A DNA stretch of 30,989 nt from a virus. Its lineage: Duplodnaviria > Heunggongvirae > Uroviricota > Caudoviricetes. Both the position numbers and the translations under genes were made by a program. The notes under the pieces are model-generated. The model saw only the letters and a list, made by a program, of their open reading frames with translations. It was not told the origin of the DNA and searched no databases. Below, in pieces: positions 1 through 9,612 of this stretch (position 1 is the stretch's first letter; every line of letters begins with the position of its first letter). Where the stretch lies: the IMG/VR virus record IMGVR_UViG_2537561692_000010. One strand, 5' to 3'.

Positions 1-404
<404 letters not shown>

Positions 405-564
405 TTGGCAGGCTGAGTAACTTAAAACTCCTTAGAATATAGGATGATTTGTATCGGCACTCATTCCACCATGCATTCCGATTAATCCCGCATAGCCAGT
501 TGAACTTTGCTACTCTGTGAGAGGTAGTACCTTCTATCCAGTGCGGATTTAATTAATGGAATAA

Positions 565-2568
565 ATGATTATGAGTGAAAATGATACAACCCCAAAGAAG
601 TCTACAAGCCAGGTTAACAAAGCGGTATTCTTTACATCTGCTTTGCTAATTTTCCTTCTTGTCGCCTTTGCCGCCGTATTCCCGGATGTCGCCGACAAAA
701 ATTTTAAACTACTTCAGCAACAAATCTTCACGAATGCCAGCTGGTTCTACATACTTGCTGTGGCCCTGATTTTACTGAGCGTCACGTTCCTTGGACTCTC
801 ACGTTACGGTGATATAAAGCTGGGCCCAGACCATGCGCAGCCTGATTTCAGCTACCACTCCTGGTTCGCGATGCTTTTTTCGGCAGGGATGGGGATCGGC
901 CTGATGTTCTTTGGCGTTGCCGAACCTGTGATGCATTATCTTTCGCCACCTGTCGGCACTCCAGAGACCGTTGCGGCAGCGAAGGAAGCCATGCGCCTGA
1001 CGTTCTTCCACTGGGGTCTGCACGCATGGGCAATTTATGCCATCGTGGCGCTGATTCTGGCCTTTTTCAGTTACCGTCACGGTCTGCCTTTAACGCTGCG
1101 TTCTGCGCTCTATCCCATTATCGGCGATCGCATTTACGGGCCTATAGGCCACGCGGTTGATATCTTCGCCGTGATAGGCACTGTCTTTGGCGTTGCAACA
1201 TCGCTGGGTTACGGTGTATTGCAGGTGAATGCCGGTTTGAACCATCTTTTCGGCGTGCCCATCAATGAAACGGTACAGGTCATTTTGATCGTGGTCATCA
1301 CGGGGTTAGCGACGATTTCGGTGGTGTCCGGCCTGGACAAGGGAATACGCATCCTGTCTGAGCTTAATCTGGGCCTGGCGGTGTTGCTCCTGGCGCTGGT
1401 CTTGTGCCTGGGTCCCACTGTGCTTCTGCTGAAGTCATTTGTGGAAAATACGGGTGGTTATCTGTCGGAACTGGTGAGTAAAACGTTCAACCTTTACGCG
1501 TATGAACCCAAGTCGAGCAACTGGCTGGGGGGCTGGACATTATTATACTGGGGATGGTGGCTTTCATGGTCGCCGTTTGTAGGTATGTTCATTGCACGCG
1601 TTTCCCGCGGCAGGACAATTCGTGAGTTCGTGACTGGCGTGTTGTTTGTTCCCGCCGGCTTTACGCTCATGTGGATGACGGTGTTTGGAAACAGCGCCAT
1701 CTATCTCATCATGAACCAGGGCGCCACTGACCTCGCCAATACCGTTCAGCAGGATGTTGCGCTTGCCCTGTTTAATTTCCTGGAGCATTTCCCGTTCTCT
1801 TCCGTGCTGTCATTCATTGCAATGGCGATGGTCATCGTCTTCTTTGTAACGTCTGCTGATTCGGGGGCAATGGTTGTGGATACTCTGGCATCAGGTGGGG
1901 TGGCAAACACGCCCGTCTGGCAGCGAATTTTCTGGGCATTGCTCATGGGCGTTGTTGCTATTGCCCTGCTGATCGCAGGGGGGCTGAGTGCGTTGCAAAC
2001 CGTAACGATAGCGAGTGCATTGCCCTTCTCAGTTATCTTATTAATATCCATATACGGACTGTTAAAAGCCCTGCGTCGGGATTTGACCAAGCGTGAAAGC
2101 CTTAGCATGGCGACTATTGCTCCTACGGCTGCACGTAACCCAATTCCCTGGCAGAGAAGGTTACGCAATATCGCGTATTTGCCGAAGCGCTCTCTTGTGA
2201 AACGTTTTATGGACGACATTATCCAACCCGCCATGACGCTGGTTCAGGAGGAACTTAACAAGCAGGGAACGATAAGCCACATCAGTGACGCCGCCGAGGA
2301 TCGTATTCGCCTTGAAGTCGATTTGGGCAACGAGCTGAATTATATATATGAAGTGAGGCTTCGCGGGTATAACTCACCGACCTTCGCGCTCGCTGCGCTG
2401 GATAATGATGAGCAGCAGAGTGAACAACATCGATATTATCGCGCTGAAGTCTATCTCAAAGAGGGCGGCCAAAATTATGATGTAATGGGCTGGAATCAGG
2501 AACAGCTGATTAATGACATACTGGACCAGTACGAAAAACACCTGCACTTCCTGCATCTGGTTCGTTAA
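565..2568 (+). CDS. BCCT-family transporter, BetT-like (choline/betaine/carnitine), 667 aa
   Basis: Multi-TM protein with the BCCT tryptophan signature WTLLYWGWWLSWSPFVGMF and a long cytoplasmic C-terminal tail as in BetT. Recognisably paralogous to, but clearly different from, E. coli BetT as I recall it. Confidence 0.85.
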   Translation: MIMSENDTTPKKSTSQVNKAVFFTSALLIFLLVAFAAVFPDVADKNFKLLQQQIFTNASWFYILAVALILLSVTFLGLSRYGDIKLGPDHAQPDFSYHSWFAMLFSAGMGIGLMFFGVAEPVMHYLSPPVGTPETVAAAKEAMRLTFFHWGLHAWAIYAIVALILAFFSYRHGLPLTLRSALYPIIGDRIYGPIGHAVDIFAVIGTVFGVATSLGYGVLQVNAGLNHLFGVPINETVQVILIVVITGLATISVVSGLDKGIRILSELNLGLAVLLLALVLCLGPTVLLLKSFVENTGGYLSELVSKTFNLYAYEPKSSNWLGGWTLLYWGWWLSWSPFVGMFIARVSRGRTIREFVTGVLFVPAGFTLMWMTVFGNSAIYLIMNQGATDLANTVQQDVALALFNFLEHFPFSSVLSFIAMAMVIVFFVTSADSGAMVVDTLASGGVANTPVWQRIFWALLMGVVAIALLIAGGLSALQTVTIASALPFSVILLISIYGLLKALRRDLTKRESLSMATIAPTAARNPIPWQRRLRNIAYLPKRSLVKRFMDDIIQPAMTLVQEELNKQGTISHISDAAEDRIRLEVDLGNELNYIYEVRLRGYNSPTFALAALDNDEQQSEQHRYYRAEVYLKEGGQNYDVMGWNQEQLINDILDQYEKHLHFLHLVR

Positions 2569-2616
2569 CAGCAACATGCCGCCACAGAGGCGGCATTTAT
2601 TTATCCCGGCTGCAAT

Positions 2617-3909
2617 ATGAGGGAATGCAGAATGATTTCACGCTGGAAATGGATGCTGAAGCAGACATTTAAAAAACTATGGTTCAGGGCAACGTTATTC
2701 GCAATTGTCGCAATAATAACGGCCCTTTTATCAATTCTTTTTAAATCAATGATACCTGAGTCGGTTTCCGTGAAGGTTGGTGCGGAAGCAGTCGATAACA
2801 TTCTGAACATACTGGCATCGAGTATGCTGGCAGTGACCACATTTTCGCTGAGCATCATGGTCACAGCCTACGGTTCAGCCACTACTAATGTGACTCCCAG
2901 AGCTACTCGTTTAGTTGTTGAAGACGTCACCACACAAAATGTACTGGCCACCTTCATCGGTTCTTTTCTCTTCAGTCTGGTAGGGATTATTGCCCTCAAT
3001 ATGGGAGCTTATGGAGAAAGGGGGAGAGTCATTTTATTCATTGTAACACTGGTTGTCATTGCCTTAATCCTCATCACATTGCTTCGCTGGATACAGCATT
3101 TGACCTCTCTGGGGAGGGTTGGTGAGACAACGGCAAAAGTAGAACAGGCGGCCATCGAAACATTTATTGCGAGAGCAAGAAATCCCTGTCTCGGCGGATA
3201 TCCATGGCTTGAGAACAATGAACAGCCGAAAGGAACGGTTGCAGTTTATCCGAAAAAGATTGGCTATGTTGAATATGTTGATATGGTGAAACTCAGCAAG
3301 CTGCTGACCAATGATCCCCGTCATGTATACCTCGTGGCGCAGCCGGGCAGTTTCATACATCCGTCCACGCCAGTTTTGTACCTGAGTCAGGGCCAGGAGT
3401 CATCAATCAGCACCGATTTACTTGAGACGATTATTGTCTCGGATGTACGTTCATTTGCTCAGGACCCCCGATTTTGTCTTAGCGTCATGGCCGAAATAGC
3501 CTGCCGAGCCCTTTCCCCCGCAGTGAACGATCCTGGAACCGCCATTGATGTCATTGGCAGAGGTGTACGTATACTTTCCGCTTACGCGCAGAATAAATCT
3601 GATGAAATAGAAGTGAAATATCCTTCTGTACATGTTGCACCACTTCAGAATAACGATCTACTTGAAGACTTTTTCTCACCTGTTGCGCGCGATGGTGCCA
3701 GTATGAGGGAAATTCAGATAAGGGTCCTTAAAGGACTGTCGATGCTGAGTAAGGGTTGGCCTGGAATTTTTGCTGAAGCCGCACAAACCCTAGCATTTGA
3801 AACATTAGAGCATGCTACTCGTGCTGACCATATAGATTCTGACAGATATCTAATAAAATCAATTTATTATAATTTATTTAGTGGCGAAGATTCTAATAAA
3901 AAACCATAG
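2617..3909 (+). CDS. DUF2254-like membrane protein, 430 aa
   Basis: ORF 26 nt downstream of the transporter stop. N-terminal half has several hydrophobic helices, C-terminal half is soluble. Family assignment is from memory of DUF2254 architecture, not a search. True start may be the internal Met at 2632 (MISRW...). Confidence 0.6.
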   Translation: MRECRMISRWKWMLKQTFKKLWFRATLFAIVAIITALLSILFKSMIPESVSVKVGAEAVDNILNILASSMLAVTTFSLSIMVTAYGSATTNVTPRATRLVVEDVTTQNVLATFIGSFLFSLVGIIALNMGAYGERGRVILFIVTLVVIALILITLLRWIQHLTSLGRVGETTAKVEQAAIETFIARARNPCLGGYPWLENNEQPKGTVAVYPKKIGYVEYVDMVKLSKLLTNDPRHVYLVAQPGSFIHPSTPVLYLSQGQESSISTDLLETIIVSDVRSFAQDPRFCLSVMAEIACRALSPAVNDPGTAIDVIGRGVRILSAYAQNKSDEIEVKYPSVHVAPLQNNDLLEDFFSPVARDGASMREIQIRVLKGLSMLSKGWPGIFAEAAQTLAFETLEHATRADHIDSDRYLIKSIYYNLFSGEDSNKKP

Positions 3910-4191
3910 TTGCGGAGCAAGCGATACGGTTGTTGGCAAGTCAAGGGCAAAGCATTCGCGTGAGAGTGGGCGTCTGCTTTGTGCCAGAAGCGGACATTGC
4001 GGCGTTACGGCACGTTAGGTCAGATATTTAAATGCACATGGTCCGCTTGTGGCGGAAGGATACTTACAAGAGTTGGTGAGAGATAGTAAAATCAATATGA
4101 AAATTAAAATTCGGCAATAATTCCTGATATAGTCATCTTAATGAACATAAAAACTATCACAATAGGATAGTTTTTATGTCATACTTGTTAG

Positions 4192-4887
4192 TTAATCACT
4201 TAAGGAATGAAGTGAGGCTCGTTGTGCAGAGGTTAAGCTAAGGAGGATTTTTTCTCGATACTCAGGTGCAAAGGAAAAGAAAACATCAGGAAAAATTCTT
4301 ATGATAGTTGATATCATAGTCTTAACCACCTTATCAATCACCTTCGAAATATTATCTATTTTAACCAAGTCTATTTCGGGAAAAACATTTAAAGCTTTTA
4401 TGTGAGCCATTTCTTTTACAGTAGCTGTATGTACGTGACTGCATAACGAAGAGTATTCAGCTTTTAAAGTTTCATGTAGTAGAGGATTTTTTTTGAAGAC
4501 AGGATGTTCCCCAGTTTGTTCAATTACCTTAAACAATGATTTTTCTTCAAGTATTGAAGGATCTAGTAAGCAACCGATTGATTTTAAAGAATTTTCAATA
4601 TAACTTCGCATCATTAGATTTGCTGGTTTGTATGCACCATTTATAACCATAAACATAGCTGTACCAAGGTCAGATGAAGCTTCTTGCAATCGCTCCAATG
4701 AGTTGGCGTCTATTTTCTCCTTGGAGAAATGATACAAACAGTAAACAAGGCACATAAAAGAATAATATCTCTTATGTATCATGCTTATTTTCCCTCTTGA
4801 GTTAATATTCTCGAAAACATTTTTTAATTTATATTCAGAGAAATAAGTAACTAACTCAGTGAAATCGCTGTTTACTTCTCTCGACAT
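4192..4887 (-). CDS. Hypothetical protein, 231 aa, third gene of AT-rich three-gene operon
   Basis: Long ORF in an AT-rich stretch. Its start lies 2 nt after the stop of the upstream 168-aa gene. No motif recognised. Confidence 0.7.
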   Translation of the reverse strand: MSREVNSDFTELVTYFSEYKLKNVFENINSRGKISMIHKRYYSFMCLVYCLYHFSKEKIDANSLERLQEASSDLGTAMFMVINGAYKPANLMMRSYIENSLKSIGCLLDPSILEEKSLFKVIEQTGEHPVFKKNPLLHETLKAEYSSLCSHVHTATVKEMAHIKALNVFPEIDLVKIDNISKVIDKVVKTMISTIIRIFPDVFFSFAPEYREKILLSLTSAQRASLHSLSD

Positions 4888-4889
4888 TG

Positions 4890-5396
4890 TTAGTCCTTAT
4901 TGAATATATCTTTTATAACTTCATTCCAGTCATATATCTCATTTTGAGCGCTAGAAAGGTTCTTCCTCTCTTTTATTCTACTCAAAACTAGAGGGTTATT
5001 TGACATTGAATTGATAATATTATAAGCCTTACCTAAATCGGATGAGTTTTTCTCGTGAACGTCACACACGATTATGCCGATCATTTCCTCTCTAGATCTT
5101 TTTTCAGGCCTGCTGATTTCGATACCTAACATGCGTGCAAAATCATCTATATCTTTATTTTTTTGGAAGAGATCTTTGTCTAATAAAATCCTCGGAAGAT
5201 ACCCAACAAGGAAACCTTTAATATCATTTTTTTTGGACTTTGAATTTCTTTCGTTAACTTCTAAATTATCAGTATAACTATCTTGAAGTAATTCAATAAA
5301 GTTGATTCTTGATAATTTTTTTGAAATAAAGGAAAACTCCTCTAAAAAGTTTAACAGTTGCTTAATTTCTTTTGAGTTATTTTTTTTGTCAGTCAT
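4890..5396 (-). CDS. Hypothetical Lys/Asp/Glu-rich protein, 168 aa, middle gene of AT-rich operon
   Basis: Its start codon overlaps the stop of the ParA-like gene (ATGA overlap at 5393-5396), implying translational coupling. No recognisable domain. Confidence 0.7.
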   Translation of the reverse strand: MTDKKNNSKEIKQLLNFLEEFSFISKKLSRINFIELLQDSYTDNLEVNERNSKSKKNDIKGFLVGYLPRILLDKDLFQKNKDIDDFARMLGIEISRPEKRSREEMIGIIVCDVHEKNSSDLGKAYNIINSMSNNPLVLSRIKERKNLSSAQNEIYDWNEVIKDIFNKD

Positions 5397-6223
5397 AAGT
5401 CACCTACTCTAGAGAGAAGTTCGTCAGTAATTTTAGACAGCGAAAACTTCATATCCTCATCCGTTAAATTGTTAATAAATAAGCCTCTTGTTTGATTTCT
5501 TGCCAACTCAGTACGTTTGCTCAAATATGATTTAAAGATCTTATTACGCCAACGTTTTTGATTATTGAAGTAACGAAGACTTTCCTCATATAAATTACTA
5601 TTACCTTCAACCATATTAAAAACTATGCCCGCACATTCAATCTTAAGATCGAAATTTTCTCTCTTCTCATTTATAATGCTATCTAATAGATCGATACCAG
5701 TGATCGAAAGAGGATCGGGTTTGGCTGGAATGAGGTAATAATCAGATGCAATTAATGCGCTGGACATCCAAACTGATGGGGTTGGTGGGGTATCAATTAT
5801 GACATAATCATAGTCATTTTCATGGATTTTAAGAAAGCGTCTAAGCTTGTTTTCTATCCCTTCTCCTGGTTTCATTTCAATTTTATATAGCCCAAGGCTT
5901 CCGGGAACAATGTGAAAATTATCATTTAATTGAATTGGTGTTATATCGGCTAATTCTTTAGGTGTGTTAACTAAAGGACCAGTCATTGTAGATAGTCGAA
6001 TTTTTGAACTATAAAAAATATCACATATGCTATCGCCTCCGCTTTTCATATGTGCAACATATTTGCTTGTATCCATTACACATTGCGTTGCGTTAAATTG
6101 TGGGTCGATATCTATTAATAATATTTTTTGCCCAAGTTTATCTGAAAGATGATTAGCAATATTGGTAGCCAATGTTGACTTACCAACGCCACCTTTCATA
6201 TTGATTAAGCTAATAACTTTCAA
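5393..6223 (-). CDS. ParA/MinD/Soj-family P-loop ATPase, 276 aa
   Basis: Deviant Walker A MKGGVGKST at the N-terminus, followed by the IDIDPQ and VIIDTPP motifs typical of ParA/MinD ATPases. First gene of the minus-strand operon, with an AT-rich promoter region upstream (6224-6460). Confidence 0.85.
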   Translation of the reverse strand: MKVISLINMKGGVGKSTLATNIANHLSDKLGQKILLIDIDPQFNATQCVMDTSKYVAHMKSGGDSICDIFYSSKIRLSTMTGPLVNTPKELADITPIQLNDNFHIVPGSLGLYKIEMKPGEGIENKLRRFLKIHENDYDYVIIDTPPTPSVWMSSALIASDYYLIPAKPDPLSITGIDLLDSIINEKRENFDLKIECAGIVFNMVEGNSNLYEESLRYFNNQKRWRNKIFKSYLSKRTELARNQTRGLFINNLTDEDMKFSLSKITDELLSRVGDL

Positions 6224-6935
6224 TCTTCTTGCTCCTGTTTTGATTAACGCTAAGCTTTTTCATCAGCATTGAAATTTAACATGTGTTTTACAAACTTATG
6301 TCTTATCACTACCTTATCATTTTTTACATACACCATAAATATTTTTAACTAAAAATTTTTGGTTTTCAACCTGAAATCTTTATCTTTAAAAACAAAACAT
6401 TACAATATTTTTAGTAAGATACCTTACCTAATGTAATGTGAATGGCTCAATTTTGATTAACACTTAAGCTATGTTAATAATGGTTTTGTAAGTGTGATGA
6501 GGGTTCCATATGAAGAAGTGATTTCCCGAACAATACAACATGAATATCATCCTCGTAGTCGGTGTTTCTTCACATGAACTCTGTCGCAAATACGCTATAT
6601 GAAACGTGGCAAGATGAATGTACCTGAGGTTATCAATCTTAAACCGCTTGAGAGTACGCCCTGATCCTGCCCGTTGATAAACTAACTGCATTGTTTGTAA
6701 TGCTTCATCGGTGGTGAGAACAAGTTTCATACTTCCGCTTCTCGCTCAAAGCGGACTAGAAGGTTAGCTTGCGTCGGACTTGGCGTATTTAAAGAAGTAC
6801 TGGTGGTGACTGGTTGTTGTGTTCCATTTCTACAGAACAAAATCACAGAAACTATACCCAATAGTTGTATCTCATCAATGATGAGACAGCCTCATATTTA
6901 TCAGGACTGGTGTACGTCCAATACAGGAGGTTGTC

Positions 6936-7025
6936 GTGCTGGTTCTCAAATGTGCGCTGGCTATTGCAGCTGTAATGGCAATTTATTGTCTTGCTGTTGT
7001 TCTTATGGATCGCCTTTCTGATTGA
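6936..7025 (+). CDS. Candidate small hydrophobic peptide, 29 aa (VLVLKCALAIAAVMAIYCLAVVLMDRLSD)
   Basis: GTG start preceded by a canonical AGGAGG at 6925-6930 with 5-nt spacing. Single predicted TM helix. Lies just upstream of hok. Coordinates were hand-counted. Confidence 0.25.
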   Translation: MLVLKCALAIAAVMAIYCLAVVLMDRLSD

Positions 7026-7236
7026 TTTTATATTGGCGAGGTAACGGGAGTTAAGTAGAATGGCTGCGGGTGCTTGAGGCTATCTGTCTCAGGCATGAAC
7101 ACCAAAGGCAGATAGAGAAAAGCCCCAGTTAACATTACGCGTCCTGCAAGACGCTTAACATTAATCTGAGGCTCAATCTATGAACGGCAAATCTAGGTTA
7201 GCCTCTTACGTGCCGAAAGGCAAGGAGAAGCAGGCT

Positions 7237-7392
7237 ATGAAGCAGCAAAAGGCGATGTTAATCGCCCTGATCGTCATCTGTTTAACCGTCATAGTGACGG
7301 CACTGGTAACGAGGAAAGACCTCTGCGAGGTACGAATCCGAACCGGCCAGACGGAGGTCGCTGTCTTCACAGCTTACGAACCTGAGGAGTAA
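7237..7392 (+). CDS. hok: Hok/Gef-family type I toxin, 51 aa (HokD/RelF-like)
   Basis: MKQQKAMLIALIVICLTVIVTALVTRKDLCEVRIRTGQTEVAVFTAYEPEE matches the Hok/Gef family. AAGGAG Shine-Dalgarno 8 nt upstream. The track ORF 7180..7392 is the same frame with an N-terminal extension. Confidence 0.85.
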   Translation: MKQQKAMLIALIVICLTVIVTALVTRKDLCEVRIRTGQTEVAVFTAYEPEE

Positions 7393-7459
7393 GAGACCAG
7401 GCGGGGGAGAATCCCTCGCCACCTCTGATGTGTCAGGCATCCTCAACGCACCCGCACTT

Positions 7460-7487
7460 AACCCGCTTCGGCGGGTTTTGTTTTTTC
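7460..7487 (+). terminator. Rho-independent terminator downstream of hok
   Basis: Hairpin CCCGC-TTCG-GCGGG (7462-7475) followed by a T-run. Confidence 0.6.
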
Positions 7488-7558
7488 CTAGCATTCTGGT
7501 TTACAATTCGCACGCCAGCCTGAACAACTGGCACCTGCTGCGCCAGCAGAGACAACCG

Positions 7559-7837
7559 ATGGCGCACGATACCAAATTACACAATTCTGATGATTCTGCC
7601 GTCTTTGCCAGCAGGCACGGGCGGCGTTCCCGCACTTTCAAATCTGACTGGTTCCAGCATCCCCCATGCACTGAAGAACAGGCCGAGTGGCTAATTCAGT
7701 GCTACCGCAGACACGGATACGAGATTAAGAAAGCCCTCAGCCTCGATTATCGTCACTGGATAATCTCCGTCAGGCTTCCTTACTCCGAACGCCCACCGCG
7801 TCCGTCCCGCACATTCCAGCAACGCATCTGGAGGTAA
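7559..7837 (+). CDS. Hypothetical lambdoid-prophage protein, about 92 aa from the ATG at 7559
   Basis: The track ORF starts at 7430 but that start overlaps the hok terminator hairpin, so I prefer the first downstream ATG. Sits between hok and the DUF968 gene, as the rem gene does in the Qin prophage by my recollection. Start uncertain. Confidence 0.4.
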   Translation: MAHDTKLHNSDDSAVFASRHGRRSRTFKSDWFQHPPCTEEQAEWLIQCYRRHGYEIKKALSLDYRHWIISVRLPYSERPPRPSRTFQQRIWR

Positions 7838-7838
7838 C

Positions 7839-8885
7839 GTGCGGGTATTACTTCGACCTGTTCTGGTACCGGAACTCGGGCTGGTGATCGTTAAGCCGGG
7901 CCGGGAATCCATGCCGGTATTCCACAATACCCGGGTACTGGTGGAGCCGGAACCGAAAAGCATGCGTAATCTGCCGTCCGGGGTCGTTCCTGCCGTTCGC
8001 CAGCCGCTAGTGGAAGACAAAACATTGCTGCCGTTTTTCAGTAACGCACGGGTGATTCGTGCTGCTGGTGGTGCTGGTGCATTGTCTGACTGGCTGTTGC
8101 GCCATATTAAATCCTGCCAGTGGCCTCATGGTGATTACCATCACAGCGAAACCGTCATACATCGTTACGGTGCTGGCGCGATGGTGTTGTGCTGGCACTG
8201 TGACAACCAGTTGCGTGACCAGTCCTCCGAATCACTTGAGCAACTTGCTCACCAAAACCTGTCAGCATGGATGATTGATGTCATGCGCCATGCAATGAAT
8301 GGCACACAGGAGCGGGAATTATCGCTGGCTGAATTATCCTGGTGGGCTGTCTGCAATCAGGTGGCGGACGCACTACCGGAGGTAGTATTACGTCGTTCTC
8401 TGGGGTTACGTGCGGAAAAAATTCGCTCGGTGTACCGCGAAAGCGACATCGTACCGGGAGAGCAGACCGCCACCAGCATACTGAAGCAGCGCACAAAAAA
8501 TCTTGCGCCGCTGCCTCACGCCCACCAGCAAAATCCACCACAGGAAAAGACGGTGGTCAGCATTGCTGTTGATCCGGAGTCTCCGGAATCTTTCATGAAG
8601 CGACCTAAACGTCGCCGTTGGGTAAATGAGAAATATACGCGCTGGGTAAAGACACAGCCGTGTGCGTGTTGTGATAAGCCAGCCGACGATCCCCATCACC
8701 TGATTGGTCATGGTCAGGGCGGAATAGGGACAAAATCCCACGATATTTTCACGCTACCGCTGTGTCGGGAGCATCACAACGAGCTTCATGCGGATCCGCT
8801 GGCGTTCGAAGAAAAGCATGGTTCCCAGATTGATTTAATTTTTCGTTTTCTTGATCGCGCCTTTGCAACCGGCGTGCTCGGGTAA
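7839..8885 (+). CDS. DUF968-family lambdoid phage protein (YdfU-like), 348 aa, with C-terminal Cys/His-rich HNH-like motif
   Basis: Size and position upstream of rusA/Q match the YdfU-type DUF968 protein of lambdoid prophages. C-terminus carries CACCDKPADDPHHLIGH...LCREHHNELH. Confidence 0.7.
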   Translation: MRVLLRPVLVPELGLVIVKPGRESMPVFHNTRVLVEPEPKSMRNLPSGVVPAVRQPLVEDKTLLPFFSNARVIRAAGGAGALSDWLLRHIKSCQWPHGDYHHSETVIHRYGAGAMVLCWHCDNQLRDQSSESLEQLAHQNLSAWMIDVMRHAMNGTQERELSLAELSWWAVCNQVADALPEVVLRRSLGLRAEKIRSVYRESDIVPGEQTATSILKQRTKNLAPLPHAHQQNPPQEKTVVSIAVDPESPESFMKRPKRRRWVNEKYTRWVKTQPCACCDKPADDPHHLIGHGQGGIGTKSHDIFTLPLCREHHNELHADPLAFEEKHGSQIDLIFRFLDRAFATGVLG

Positions 8886-8897
8886 AAGAGGTTACTG

Positions 8898-9269
8898 ATG
8901 CGTATAGAGTTTGTTTTGCCTTACCCGCCGACGGTGAACACCTACTGGCGTCGTCGTGGCAGCACATATTTTGTATCAAAAGCCGGTGAGCGTTATCGCC
9001 GGGATGTGGCACTTATTGTCCGCCAGCAGCGGCTGAAATTAAACCTGTCCGGAAGGCTGGCAATAAAAATTACTGCAGAGCCGCCGGATAAGCGCCGTCG
9101 GGACCTGGACAATATCCTGAAAGCACCGCTGGATGCACTGACGCATGCGGGGCTTCTCATAGACGACGAGCAGTTTGATGAAATCAATATTGTGCGCGGT
9201 AAGCTCGTTCCTGGTGGTCGGCTGGGCGTGAAGATTTGCGAAATTAGAGGTGATAGTAATGGGGCGTGA
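8898..9269 (+). CDS. rusA: RusA Holliday-junction resolvase, 123 aa
   Basis: Translation resembles E. coli RusA, including the RRRDLDN catalytic-region motif and overall length. Canonical nin-region position just upstream of Q. Confidence 0.85.
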   Translation: MRIEFVLPYPPTVNTYWRRRGSTYFVSKAGERYRRDVALIVRQQRLKLNLSGRLAIKITAEPPDKRRRDLDNILKAPLDALTHAGLLIDDEQFDEINIVRGKLVPGGRLGVKICEIRGDSNGA

Positions 9270-9612
9270 TATGTATGAGGTTTTAGACCGCTGGGGGGCA
9301 TGGGCTGCAGCAGAAAATAGTGGTGTCGATTGGCAACCGATAGCAGCGGGCTTCAAGGGGCTTTTACCTCATGGTAAAAAGTCACGGATTCAGTGTGATG
9401 ATGACGAAGGCATTATGATAGACAGTTGTGTGGCTCGGTTGAGAAGGTATAAACCAGAGGAATATGAGCTCATCATAGCCCACTTTGTTATTGGTATCTC
9501 ATTACGCACTATTGCCAAAAAGAGAAGGTGTTCAGATGGCACGATTAGAAAGGAATTACAAACTGCAATTGGTTTTGTAGAGGGTATTACGAGCGTTATT
9601 GCATGTAAATAA
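9259..9612 (+). CDS. Q: Late-gene antitermination protein Q, about 117 aa
   Basis: LDRWGAWAA...IAAGFKGL resembles lambdoid Q antiterminators such as QuuD. Start chosen at the ATG with GAGG 8 nt upstream; the track starts at GTG 9250 and an ATG at 9271 is also possible. Confidence 0.8.
   Translation: MGRDMYEVLDRWGAWAAAENSGVDWQPIAAGFKGLLPHGKKSRIQCDDDEGIMIDSCVARLRRYKPEEYELIIAHFVIGISLRTIAKKRRCSDGTIRKELQTAIGFVEGITSVIACK

Follow-up and report, generated by a model that had tools for sequence, protein, structure and literature searches.

The virus record IMGVR_UViG_2537561692_000010, a stretch of 30,989 nucleotides (nt) referred to here in its full length as the window, contains between positions 6224 and 7440 a hok toxin gene and, upstream of it, an open reading frame (ORF) for a hydrophobic peptide of 29 amino acids (aa), hereafter ORF29. 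An earlier reading of this DNA (the original prediction) had described the interval as the truncated left boundary of a prophage. The interval lies inside a lambdoid Escherichia coli prophage at the Qin site and contains no boundary; its place is the early-rightward ('nin') region between the replication genes and the antiterminator gene Q. The reading that we favour, and regard as likely in its entirety, is that of an internal nin-region interval consisting of the end of a cargo cassette, a genuine ORF29 gene and a complete hok/mok/sok module. The hok/mok/sok part is textbook biology, and ORF29 is a credible gene for a small membrane protein, another allelic form of which is annotated elsewhere.

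ORF29 and the adjoining hok/mok/sok module

ORF29 occupies positions 6936..7025 on the plus strand, starts with GTG and encodes the single-pass hydrophobic peptide MLVLKCALAIAAVMAIYCLAVVLMDRLSD, which contains one predicted helix (approximately residues 6-24) and qualifies as a hydrophobic membrane peptide. It is unannotated in RefSeq. The perfect Shine-Dalgarno sequence AGGAGG noted in the original prediction is present at 6925..6930, 5 nt before the GTG, and the stop codon is located 211 nt before the hok ATG, 8 nt before the -35 hexamer of the hok promoter (starting at 7033) and 43 nt before the 5' end of the hok mRNA (7068). ORF29 therefore lies outside the hok transcript and is not Mok-like. 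Between the cargo slot and ORF29 lies a backbone segment (6734..6935, plus strand) delimited by the conservation of the block 6734..7067. This segment contains a -10-like hexamer (CATATT, 6893..6898), preceded in most alleles by a -35 hexamer (TTGAAT) at a 17-nt spacing, from which we infer a candidate weak promoter.

Taken from one sequence alone, ORF29 and its Shine-Dalgarno sequence are not beyond chance, and their significance comes from comparative data only. AGGAGG followed by a start codon occurs six times in the window, compared with 3.2 +/- 2.0 times in shuffled sequences, and ORFs of 20 aa or longer are common, 65 of them lying within 4 kb. Copies of the region were compared in a set comprising the window and 154 further copies from IMG/VR and annotated records (155 copies, 36 alleles), which were gathered with an ORF-internal pattern, with an unbiased pattern anchored on the Shine-Dalgarno sequence and the hok promoter, and from records fetched earlier.

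The hok coding sequence (7237..7392, plus strand, 51 aa) was identified from the ORF list, the RefSeq hokD annotation, Pfam and its identity to K-12. The peptide matches the Hok/Gef family PF01848 (3e-23, 81.6 bits at a cut-off of 22), and the mok/hok frame matches phrog_251 (7.7e-33). As originally described, hok has its own Shine-Dalgarno sequence (AAGGAG, 7222..7227) and a downstream intrinsic terminator (7460..7487), which consists of a hairpin at 7460..7477 with a 7-bp stem including five GC pairs, followed by TTGTTTTTTC. A promoter scan identified the hok promoter at 7033..7061 (TTGGCG, 17-nt spacer, TAGAAT); it is nearly invariant over the 155 copies and is situated 7 nt upstream of the position corresponding to position 1 of the Rfam model RF01794. 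This sok model, which is built on the hok-leader strand, aligns over its whole length (positions 1-157) to 7068..7242 and scores 110 bits, where the gathering score is 59. Together, the Rfam match, the promoter and the fold delimit a hok mRNA of ~418 nt (7068..~7485). When folded over 417 nt (7068..7484), this RNA has a minimum free energy of -171 kcal/mol (z = -7.8), and in the minimum free energy structure nt 1-12 pair with the 3' region at ~7438..7453. The fold-back element is CCUCAACGCACCC (7441..7453), and its partner in this pairing is the 5' end, GGGUGCUUGAGG, where the tac element is located.

The mok gene is a 70-aa ORF at 7180..7392 (plus strand), in frame with and running over hok, which is supported by the ORF list, the phrog_251 match and the annotation of phage HannyBb, where the equivalent 213-nt coding sequence is called 'MokW-like'. 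It has a Shine-Dalgarno sequence (GAGG) at 7168..7171, and its frame is retained in all mok-start alleles. Both this true Mok ORF and the hok transcription start at 7068 had been missed previously. Opposite the leader, where an antisense Sok RNA had been anticipated, a predicted sok gene extends over 7115..7223 on the minus strand, with a -35 hexamer TTGCCT (7223..7218), a 17-nt spacer and a -10 hexamer TAACCT (7200..7195), at a position equivalent to that of the R1 sok promoter. The predicted Sok RNA would run from ~7188 to 7115 (~70 nt), span the mok Shine-Dalgarno sequence and start codon, and comprise a free 5' tail of ~9 nt, a long hairpin and the U-rich tail CUUUUCUCU (fold -31.9 kcal/mol, z = -5.4). 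The expectation of an antisense Sok is supported by the RF01794 match and this candidate, and the predicted hexamers are conserved in most of the 155 copies. However, they agree with the consensus at only 7 of 12 positions and are absent from the promoter-scan list, and because of this weakness the placement of Sok at ~7188..7115 is one that we infer.

Judged by its sequence, and with sok as predicted above, the hok locus is a complete, canonical hok/mok/sok type I toxin-antitoxin module and represents known biology in intact form. By analogy with the R1 and hokW paradigms, the hok mRNA would be stable and kept inert through pairing of its 5' and 3' ends, and trimming of the 3' end would then allow translation of mok, to which that of hok would be coupled. 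A short, labile antisense Sok from the opposite strand would block the mok ribosome-binding site, and upon its decay Hok would be expected to kill through damage to the inner membrane.

A short stretch of the leader (7172-7194), covering the first codons after the mok ATG and the nucleotides just upstream, is hypervariable. Its complement forms the 5' tail and start of the predicted Sok, and at least eight alleles occur among the 155 copies within an otherwise nearly invariant leader. This pattern suggests alleles of differing Sok/hok specificity, by which prophages residing in the same cell would escape cross-talk. Near the Hok C-terminus, codon 47 (Tyr47, TAC followed by G, 7375-7378) is found in a UACG context; at sites of this kind in hokB, C, D and E, TadA-mediated A-to-I editing replaces Tyr by Cys (10.1101/2025.08.07.668861). 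The same recent survey reports that hok is enriched in prophages (10.1101/2025.08.07.668861).

The module shares with hok/mok/sok (parB) of plasmid R1 the Hok/Gef peptide, the full-length match to the sok/hok leader, the mok frame running over hok, the fold-back pairing, a predicted antisense promoter with hairpin facing the mok start, and a downstream terminator. In contrast to R1, it is prophage-borne and encodes a HokD/HokW-type peptide and a Mok that is an in-frame N-terminal extension of Hok. HokW is 44% identical to R1 Hok (PMC8621323). The hokW-sokW locus of the Stx2 prophage Sp5 (O157 Sakai) is similarly placed in a lambdoid nin region with DUF968/YdfU-like, RusA and Q genes as neighbours, and Hok peptides are nearly identical between the window and prophages of enterohaemorrhagic E. 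coli (EHEC). The window differs from hokW-sokW in its Qin site, its enterotoxigenic E. coli (ETEC) host and its mok-start/Sok-tail allele. Hok toxicity and its repression by Sok have been shown for hokW-sokW, and the report on this related locus mentions no upstream small ORF (PMC8621323).

Comparison with hokD of E. coli K-12, which the original prediction had proposed as a check, showed that the Hok peptide of the window is 100% identical to K-12 HokD, with 98.5% identical DNA over 7223-7485 (positions 7025-7289 of the K-12 MG1655 segment). The Qin prophage of K-12 occupies the same chromosomal site and likewise carries rem, ydfU and Q-type genes downstream of hokD (relF). In contrast to the window, where the reported absence of relBE holds, it has relBE in the cargo slot, and its hokD lacks its own promoter, 5' leader, mok start, sok and ORF29. 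Homology between the K-12 relBE-hokD region and the window does not extend further left than 7223, which leaves 14 nt before the hok ATG; relBE therefore fills this very cargo slot, and the hok promoter, leader, mok start and sok were lost to it. This junction accounts for both the relBE-hokD (relF) operon of K-12 and its absence of mokD and sokD. The locus thus provides a view of hokD that is intact rather than truncated by cargo, and the odd relBE-hokD operon of K-12 is explained as a cargo swap.

Conservation and relatives of ORF29

At 87-100% identity, the block 6734..7067 is present in no fewer than 1683 of the 5426 complete E. coli genomes. Among phages, Tritos, Evi and mEp460_ev081 also carry it, and HannyBb carries part of it. 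Exactly 29 codons are intact in 34 of the 36 alleles (153 of the 155 copies), and the GGAG(G/A) core of the Shine-Dalgarno sequence is kept in every allele class. Parsimony on a neighbour-joining tree assigned 59 synonymous events, 51 non-synonymous events and no stops to the ORF29 frame, compared with 32:69:9 and 24:86, in the same order, for the other two frames. When event positions were randomised, 34 +/- 4.7 synonymous events were expected, and none of 5000 randomisations reached 59. Pairwise NG86 ratios of non-synonymous to synonymous divergence (dN/dS) were mostly 0.16-0.34 (~0.2), events were most frequent at third codon positions (23, compared with 16 at first and 9 at second positions), and the replacements are conservative (A/T/V, V/I, L/F, R/H, D/E/N). 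The ORF29 frame is under purifying selection, and its start, stop and Shine-Dalgarno sequence are conserved over diverged copies. RNA structure across the region showed no excess (z = -0.53), by which structural RNA was ruled out as the cause of this conservation. Some GenBank records, including those of REL606 and BL21(DE3) (ACT43394.1 and ACT39199.1), list the 29-aa form as 'membrane protein' or '(conserved) hypothetical protein'.

A second form of the peptide was found by tblastn. This 34-aa homologue, MSDD(I/L)SLAMEGALAVI(A/S)VVGVYCLVVFLMDR(L/M)GN, is 54% identical to ORF29 over 28 residues (pairwise E 5e-10) and is encoded by 674 E. coli genomes, most of them EHEC, and by an IncY plasmid. 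The DNA of the two forms has diverged beyond blastn alignment, and the peptide core ALA..(A/S)V...YCL.V.LMDR is retained. Like ORF29, the 34-aa form (RefSeq WP_001278450.1 / WP_077779993.1) has a single hydrophobic helix ending in LMDRLxx and a strong Shine-Dalgarno sequence and occupies the same slot within the same succession of genes (DUF551, small ORF, hok, 279-nt gene, DUF968, RusA, Q), in its case ~245 nt before hok. It differs from ORF29 in five extra acidic N-terminal residues, an ATG start, annotation as a hypothetical protein by the Prokaryotic Genome Annotation Pipeline (PGAP), and a palindrome-containing spacer before the hok promoter, which alters the spacing by ~36 nt. In EHEC O157:H7 FRIK2533 (2501-2584, and at a second locus at 1864-1947), an unannotated hydrophobic ORF of 27 aa, MIWPEAFAITGVAIAIDFLVYVICRWG, was observed just upstream of the 34-aa ORF, its start overlapping the DUF551 stop (ATGA); these EHEC prophages thus contain two tandem mini membrane ORFs before hok.

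ORF29 also has relatives on the virulence plasmids (pINV) of Shigella and enteroinvasive E. coli, all 135 of which, among those matched by tblastn, carry one variant with 79% amino-acid identity. This copy still comprises 29 codons and starts with ATG. In pWR100 (NZ_CP037924), a block at 2402-2687 is 78% identical in DNA to positions 6836..7120 of the window and lies ~290 nt upstream of icsP. What remains of the module in this relic is an intact ORF29 homologue together with the hok promoter and ~50 nt from the start of its leader, all of them directed towards icsP; hok itself is deleted from that point on.

When 185,579 genomes were scanned at species level with an anchored pattern, true matches came only from Escherichia, including E. 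albertii, E. ruysiae and three contigs of metagenome-assembled genomes that are probably mis-binned; the other four matches look like chance. An exhaustive HMMER search of 1.84 billion representative proteins with the 30-residue translation retrieved only close relatives (at least 86% identity). By these searches, ORF29 is confined to Escherichia and Shigella. Scans of ORF29, the pINV variant, the 34-aa homologue and the 27-aa neighbour against Pfam, PHROGs, NCBIfam and PADLOC returned no family, and a literature search with the peptide strings and RefSeq accessions found no paper. Two candidate origins were rejected: BLASTP of ORF29 against Hok found nothing and no direct repeat links 6650..7067 to the hok locus, as would be expected of a degenerate hok duplicate, and YnfS of the K-12 Qin prophage, although also 29 aa long, is unrelated.

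Probable expression and possible role of ORF29

ORF29 is probably a real, hitherto uncharacterised small membrane-protein gene. It is co-oriented with the phage early operon, directly following DUF977 in the BL21 prophage, and in EHEC prophages the small ORF directly follows DUF551. Given this position behind DUF977 or DUF551 in the early-rightward operon, delayed-early read-through is the likeliest mode of expression, and ORF29 would most likely be translated from such transcripts and perhaps also from a weak local promoter. Its predicted product would be a single-pass inner-membrane protein of ~3 kDa belonging to the phage early programme, probably oriented N-in, given Lys5 and the acidic C-terminal tail MDRLSD. 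ORF29 is located outside the hok mRNA and is dispensable for hok, which occurs without an intact ORF29 in O25b and O157 prophages and in K-12.

Several observations weigh against a functional ORF29 gene or its expression as proposed here. One copy has a 2-nt deletion that shifts the frame and another lacks the stop codon. Recombination inflates the event counts, and when distinct mutations are counted once, the ratio of synonymous to non-synonymous changes is 22:26 with ~15 synonymous changes expected, which is only modestly significant. A few dN/dS values are near 1, particularly on the HannyBb/BL21 branch. Furthermore, RefSeq/PGAP leaves the 29-aa form uncalled, and many prophages retain hok and have lost ORF29 to cargo junctions, as in the O25b and O157 prophages, where only an ORF29 stump remains at the junction. 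In the window itself, the -35 hexamer of the candidate local promoter is mutated to TCTCAT (6870..6875), and 2.7 kb of cargo on the opposite strand separates ORF29 from the upstream early genes.

ORF29 might be an untranslated, fortuitous frame that owes its conservation to a role as DNA or RNA, for instance as regulatory DNA of the hok promoter or as a recombination junction. Its close abutment to the hok -35 hexamer (8 nt), the chance-level frequency of AGGAGG with a start codon, the silence of RefSeq, the retention of hok in several prophages without ORF29, and a variability inside the ORF (42 of 84 sites) similar to that of the hok promoter and leader would all be in keeping with such a role. 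We nevertheless regard it as unlikely, as the synonymous excess is specific to the ORF29 frame, which contains no in-frame stops compared with nine in another frame, substitutions follow the codon-position bias 3rd > 1st > 2nd with conservative replacements, and the 34-aa homologue keeps the peptide core despite diverged DNA and a spacing to the hok promoter that differs by ~36 nt. A Mok-like leader, as the original prediction had offered for ORF29, would require read-through transcripts carrying both ORF29 and hok, in which translation of ORF29 modulates hok/sok. The two genes are oriented alike, the ORF29 stop is close to the hok promoter, and read-through from the early operon would have to cross this promoter during lytic growth. 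This explanation is nonetheless extremely improbable: ORF29 ends 154 nt before the mok ATG and, by the Rfam match and the promoter, outside the hok mRNA; the bona fide Mok at 7180..7392 has its own Shine-Dalgarno sequence; hok loci without ORF29 are common; and the distance between ORF and promoter is not conserved in the 34-aa form.

The other role proposed originally, a second type I toxin with its own cis- or trans-encoded antisense RNA in a tandem pair with hok, was not supported and is in our view very unlikely. In its size (29 aa), its one hydrophobic helix and its charged tail, ORF29 resembles toxins of the TisB, ZorO and DinQ class, and it is tightly linked to a type I locus. However, the only antisense promoter-like site (7054..7025) has a -10 hexamer that is not conserved among the alleles and pINV, no terminator-like site was identified on the minus strand opposite ORF29, and a permissive Rfam scan of 6200..7600 (E up to 5) yielded the sok model and noise only. 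Nor does the leader/ORF region contain excess structure (z = -0.53) that could sequester the strong Shine-Dalgarno sequence. Moreover, in the EHEC and BL21 prophages it comes straight after DUF551 or DUF977 like any other gene of the operon, and the pINV copy persists with an ATG start and no visible partner. Compared with TisB, ZorO, DinQ and ShoB, whose length and single-helix hydrophobic character are similar, ORF29 exhibits no sequence similarity, a cognate antisense RNA was not found, and it has no long structured 5' untranslated region. A trans-encoded antisense RNA may still serve as its partner.

If ORF29 is a small membrane-protein gene, as we favour, the 29-30-aa and 34-aa forms constitute a conserved gene family just upstream of prophage hok, of which the 29-aa form occurs in roughly one in three complete E. 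coli genomes and survives as a relic on Shigella virulence plasmids, and the 34-aa form is found in 674 more genomes. We speculate, with little confidence, that this family is a third partner of prophage hok/sok, namely an early-operon inner-membrane protein that tunes the action of Hok; it could, for instance, gate the Hok pore or counteract its formation, or set the moment of membrane depolarisation with respect to holin-mediated lysis. Such a role would explain the persistence of two deeply diverged forms immediately before the hok promoter, a position in which more than 2,300 E. coli genomes carry them. As BL21 and REL606 carry ORF29, existing ribosome-profiling data could provide an inexpensive test of its translation.

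Prophage context and cargo

The interval 6224..7500 is 100% identical to eight human ETEC chromosomes (e.g., NZ_CP025916), and hokD is the sole RefSeq annotation within it. To its left, RefSeq lists three minus-strand genes, one of the ParA family and two hypothetical, and to its right a 279-nt hypothetical gene followed by DUF968, RusA and antiterminator Q. The original prediction had described a prophage without integrase, repressor and replication genes, of which the interval formed the truncated left boundary. The 31-kb window itself indeed contains none of these genes, as would be expected of the left end of a defective prophage that has lost its early genes and retained hok as the first one. 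In NZ_CP025916, however, the same prophage continues leftward with integrase, excisionase, exonuclease, dicB, ydfC, a LexA-family repressor, cro, ydaT, a gene for an O-like DNA-binding protein and DUF977, and these early genes adjoin rspB, which marks the Qin site. They are located 3-13 kb left of the window start in the source genome, separated from it solely by the insertion sequences IS3 and IS100, and the first base of the window falls within IS100. The apparent boundary is therefore a consequence of the window edge and the insertions. In agreement with this, strain H3 contains an uninterrupted version of the same prophage with no insertion sequences, which is 99.8-99.9% identical to the window over 403..4000 and 6734..9500 and differs within the compared range (403..9500) only at 4001..6733. 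Its BCCT and DUF2254 genes, which in the window lie left of the cassette, are part of the same prophage and directly follow DUF977. Furthermore, the functional phages Tritos, Evi, mEp460_ev081 and HannyBb share the same internal arrangement. No phage/host junction was detected, as phage-linked genes run on leftward, and a truncated left end is hardly conceivable in view of this evidence.

In the source strain, IS3 and IS100 (window 1-400; NZ_CP025916 4720331-4723536) interrupt the early operon, with the prophage DUF977 gene on one side and the BCCT transporter gene on the other, and have thereby probably uncoupled pR transcription from the nin/Q region. The BCCT-family transporter and the DUF2254 protein (565-3909) constitute prophage cargo between the replication genes and hok, comparable to trkG of the K-12 Rac prophage.

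Between these genes and the conserved backbone lies an AT-rich segment (4001..6733, minus strand) with family matches for its genes and a GC content of 26-40% compared with ~50% in the flanks. As strain H3 carries a different insert at this position and the GC content is low, we regard the segment as a horizontally swapped cargo cassette in an internal hot spot of recombination. It encodes, all on the minus strand, a 231-aa protein (4192-4887, phrog_12265), a 168-aa protein (4890-5396, phrog_12497) and a ParA-family ATPase (5393-6223), and 6224..6733 forms the upstream region of this operon and the right end of the cassette. This right end is present in just 8 of 5426 genomes, and the sequence from 6734 onward in thousands. 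Elsewhere the same slot contains Lit and RES genes, an acetyltransferase, QueH, a hydrolase or a 1.3-kb hypothetical gene, and the slot left of ORF29 is a hot spot for defence-like cargo in lambdoid prophages. The ParA cassette had no match in the phage collection, and PADLOC returned only a weak partial match (PDC-M28B, 3.8e-5). The cassette may represent an uncharacterised defence or exclusion system.

An unannotated ORF of 88 aa (6464-6730, minus strand) has its ATG at the junction between cargo and backbone (6730 next to 6734). The GGAAG motif just upstream lies inside the conserved backbone, and a minus-strand promoter-like site (6878..6851) points into the ORF, which had no family match and is present in just eight genomes. 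A second cargo region was observed downstream of Q and ahead of the lysis genes, comprising a 427-aa gene (phrog_5990, 9819-11102, minus strand), a DNA methyltransferase (11703-12749) and two tRNA genes annotated as Thr and Gly (12918-13068).

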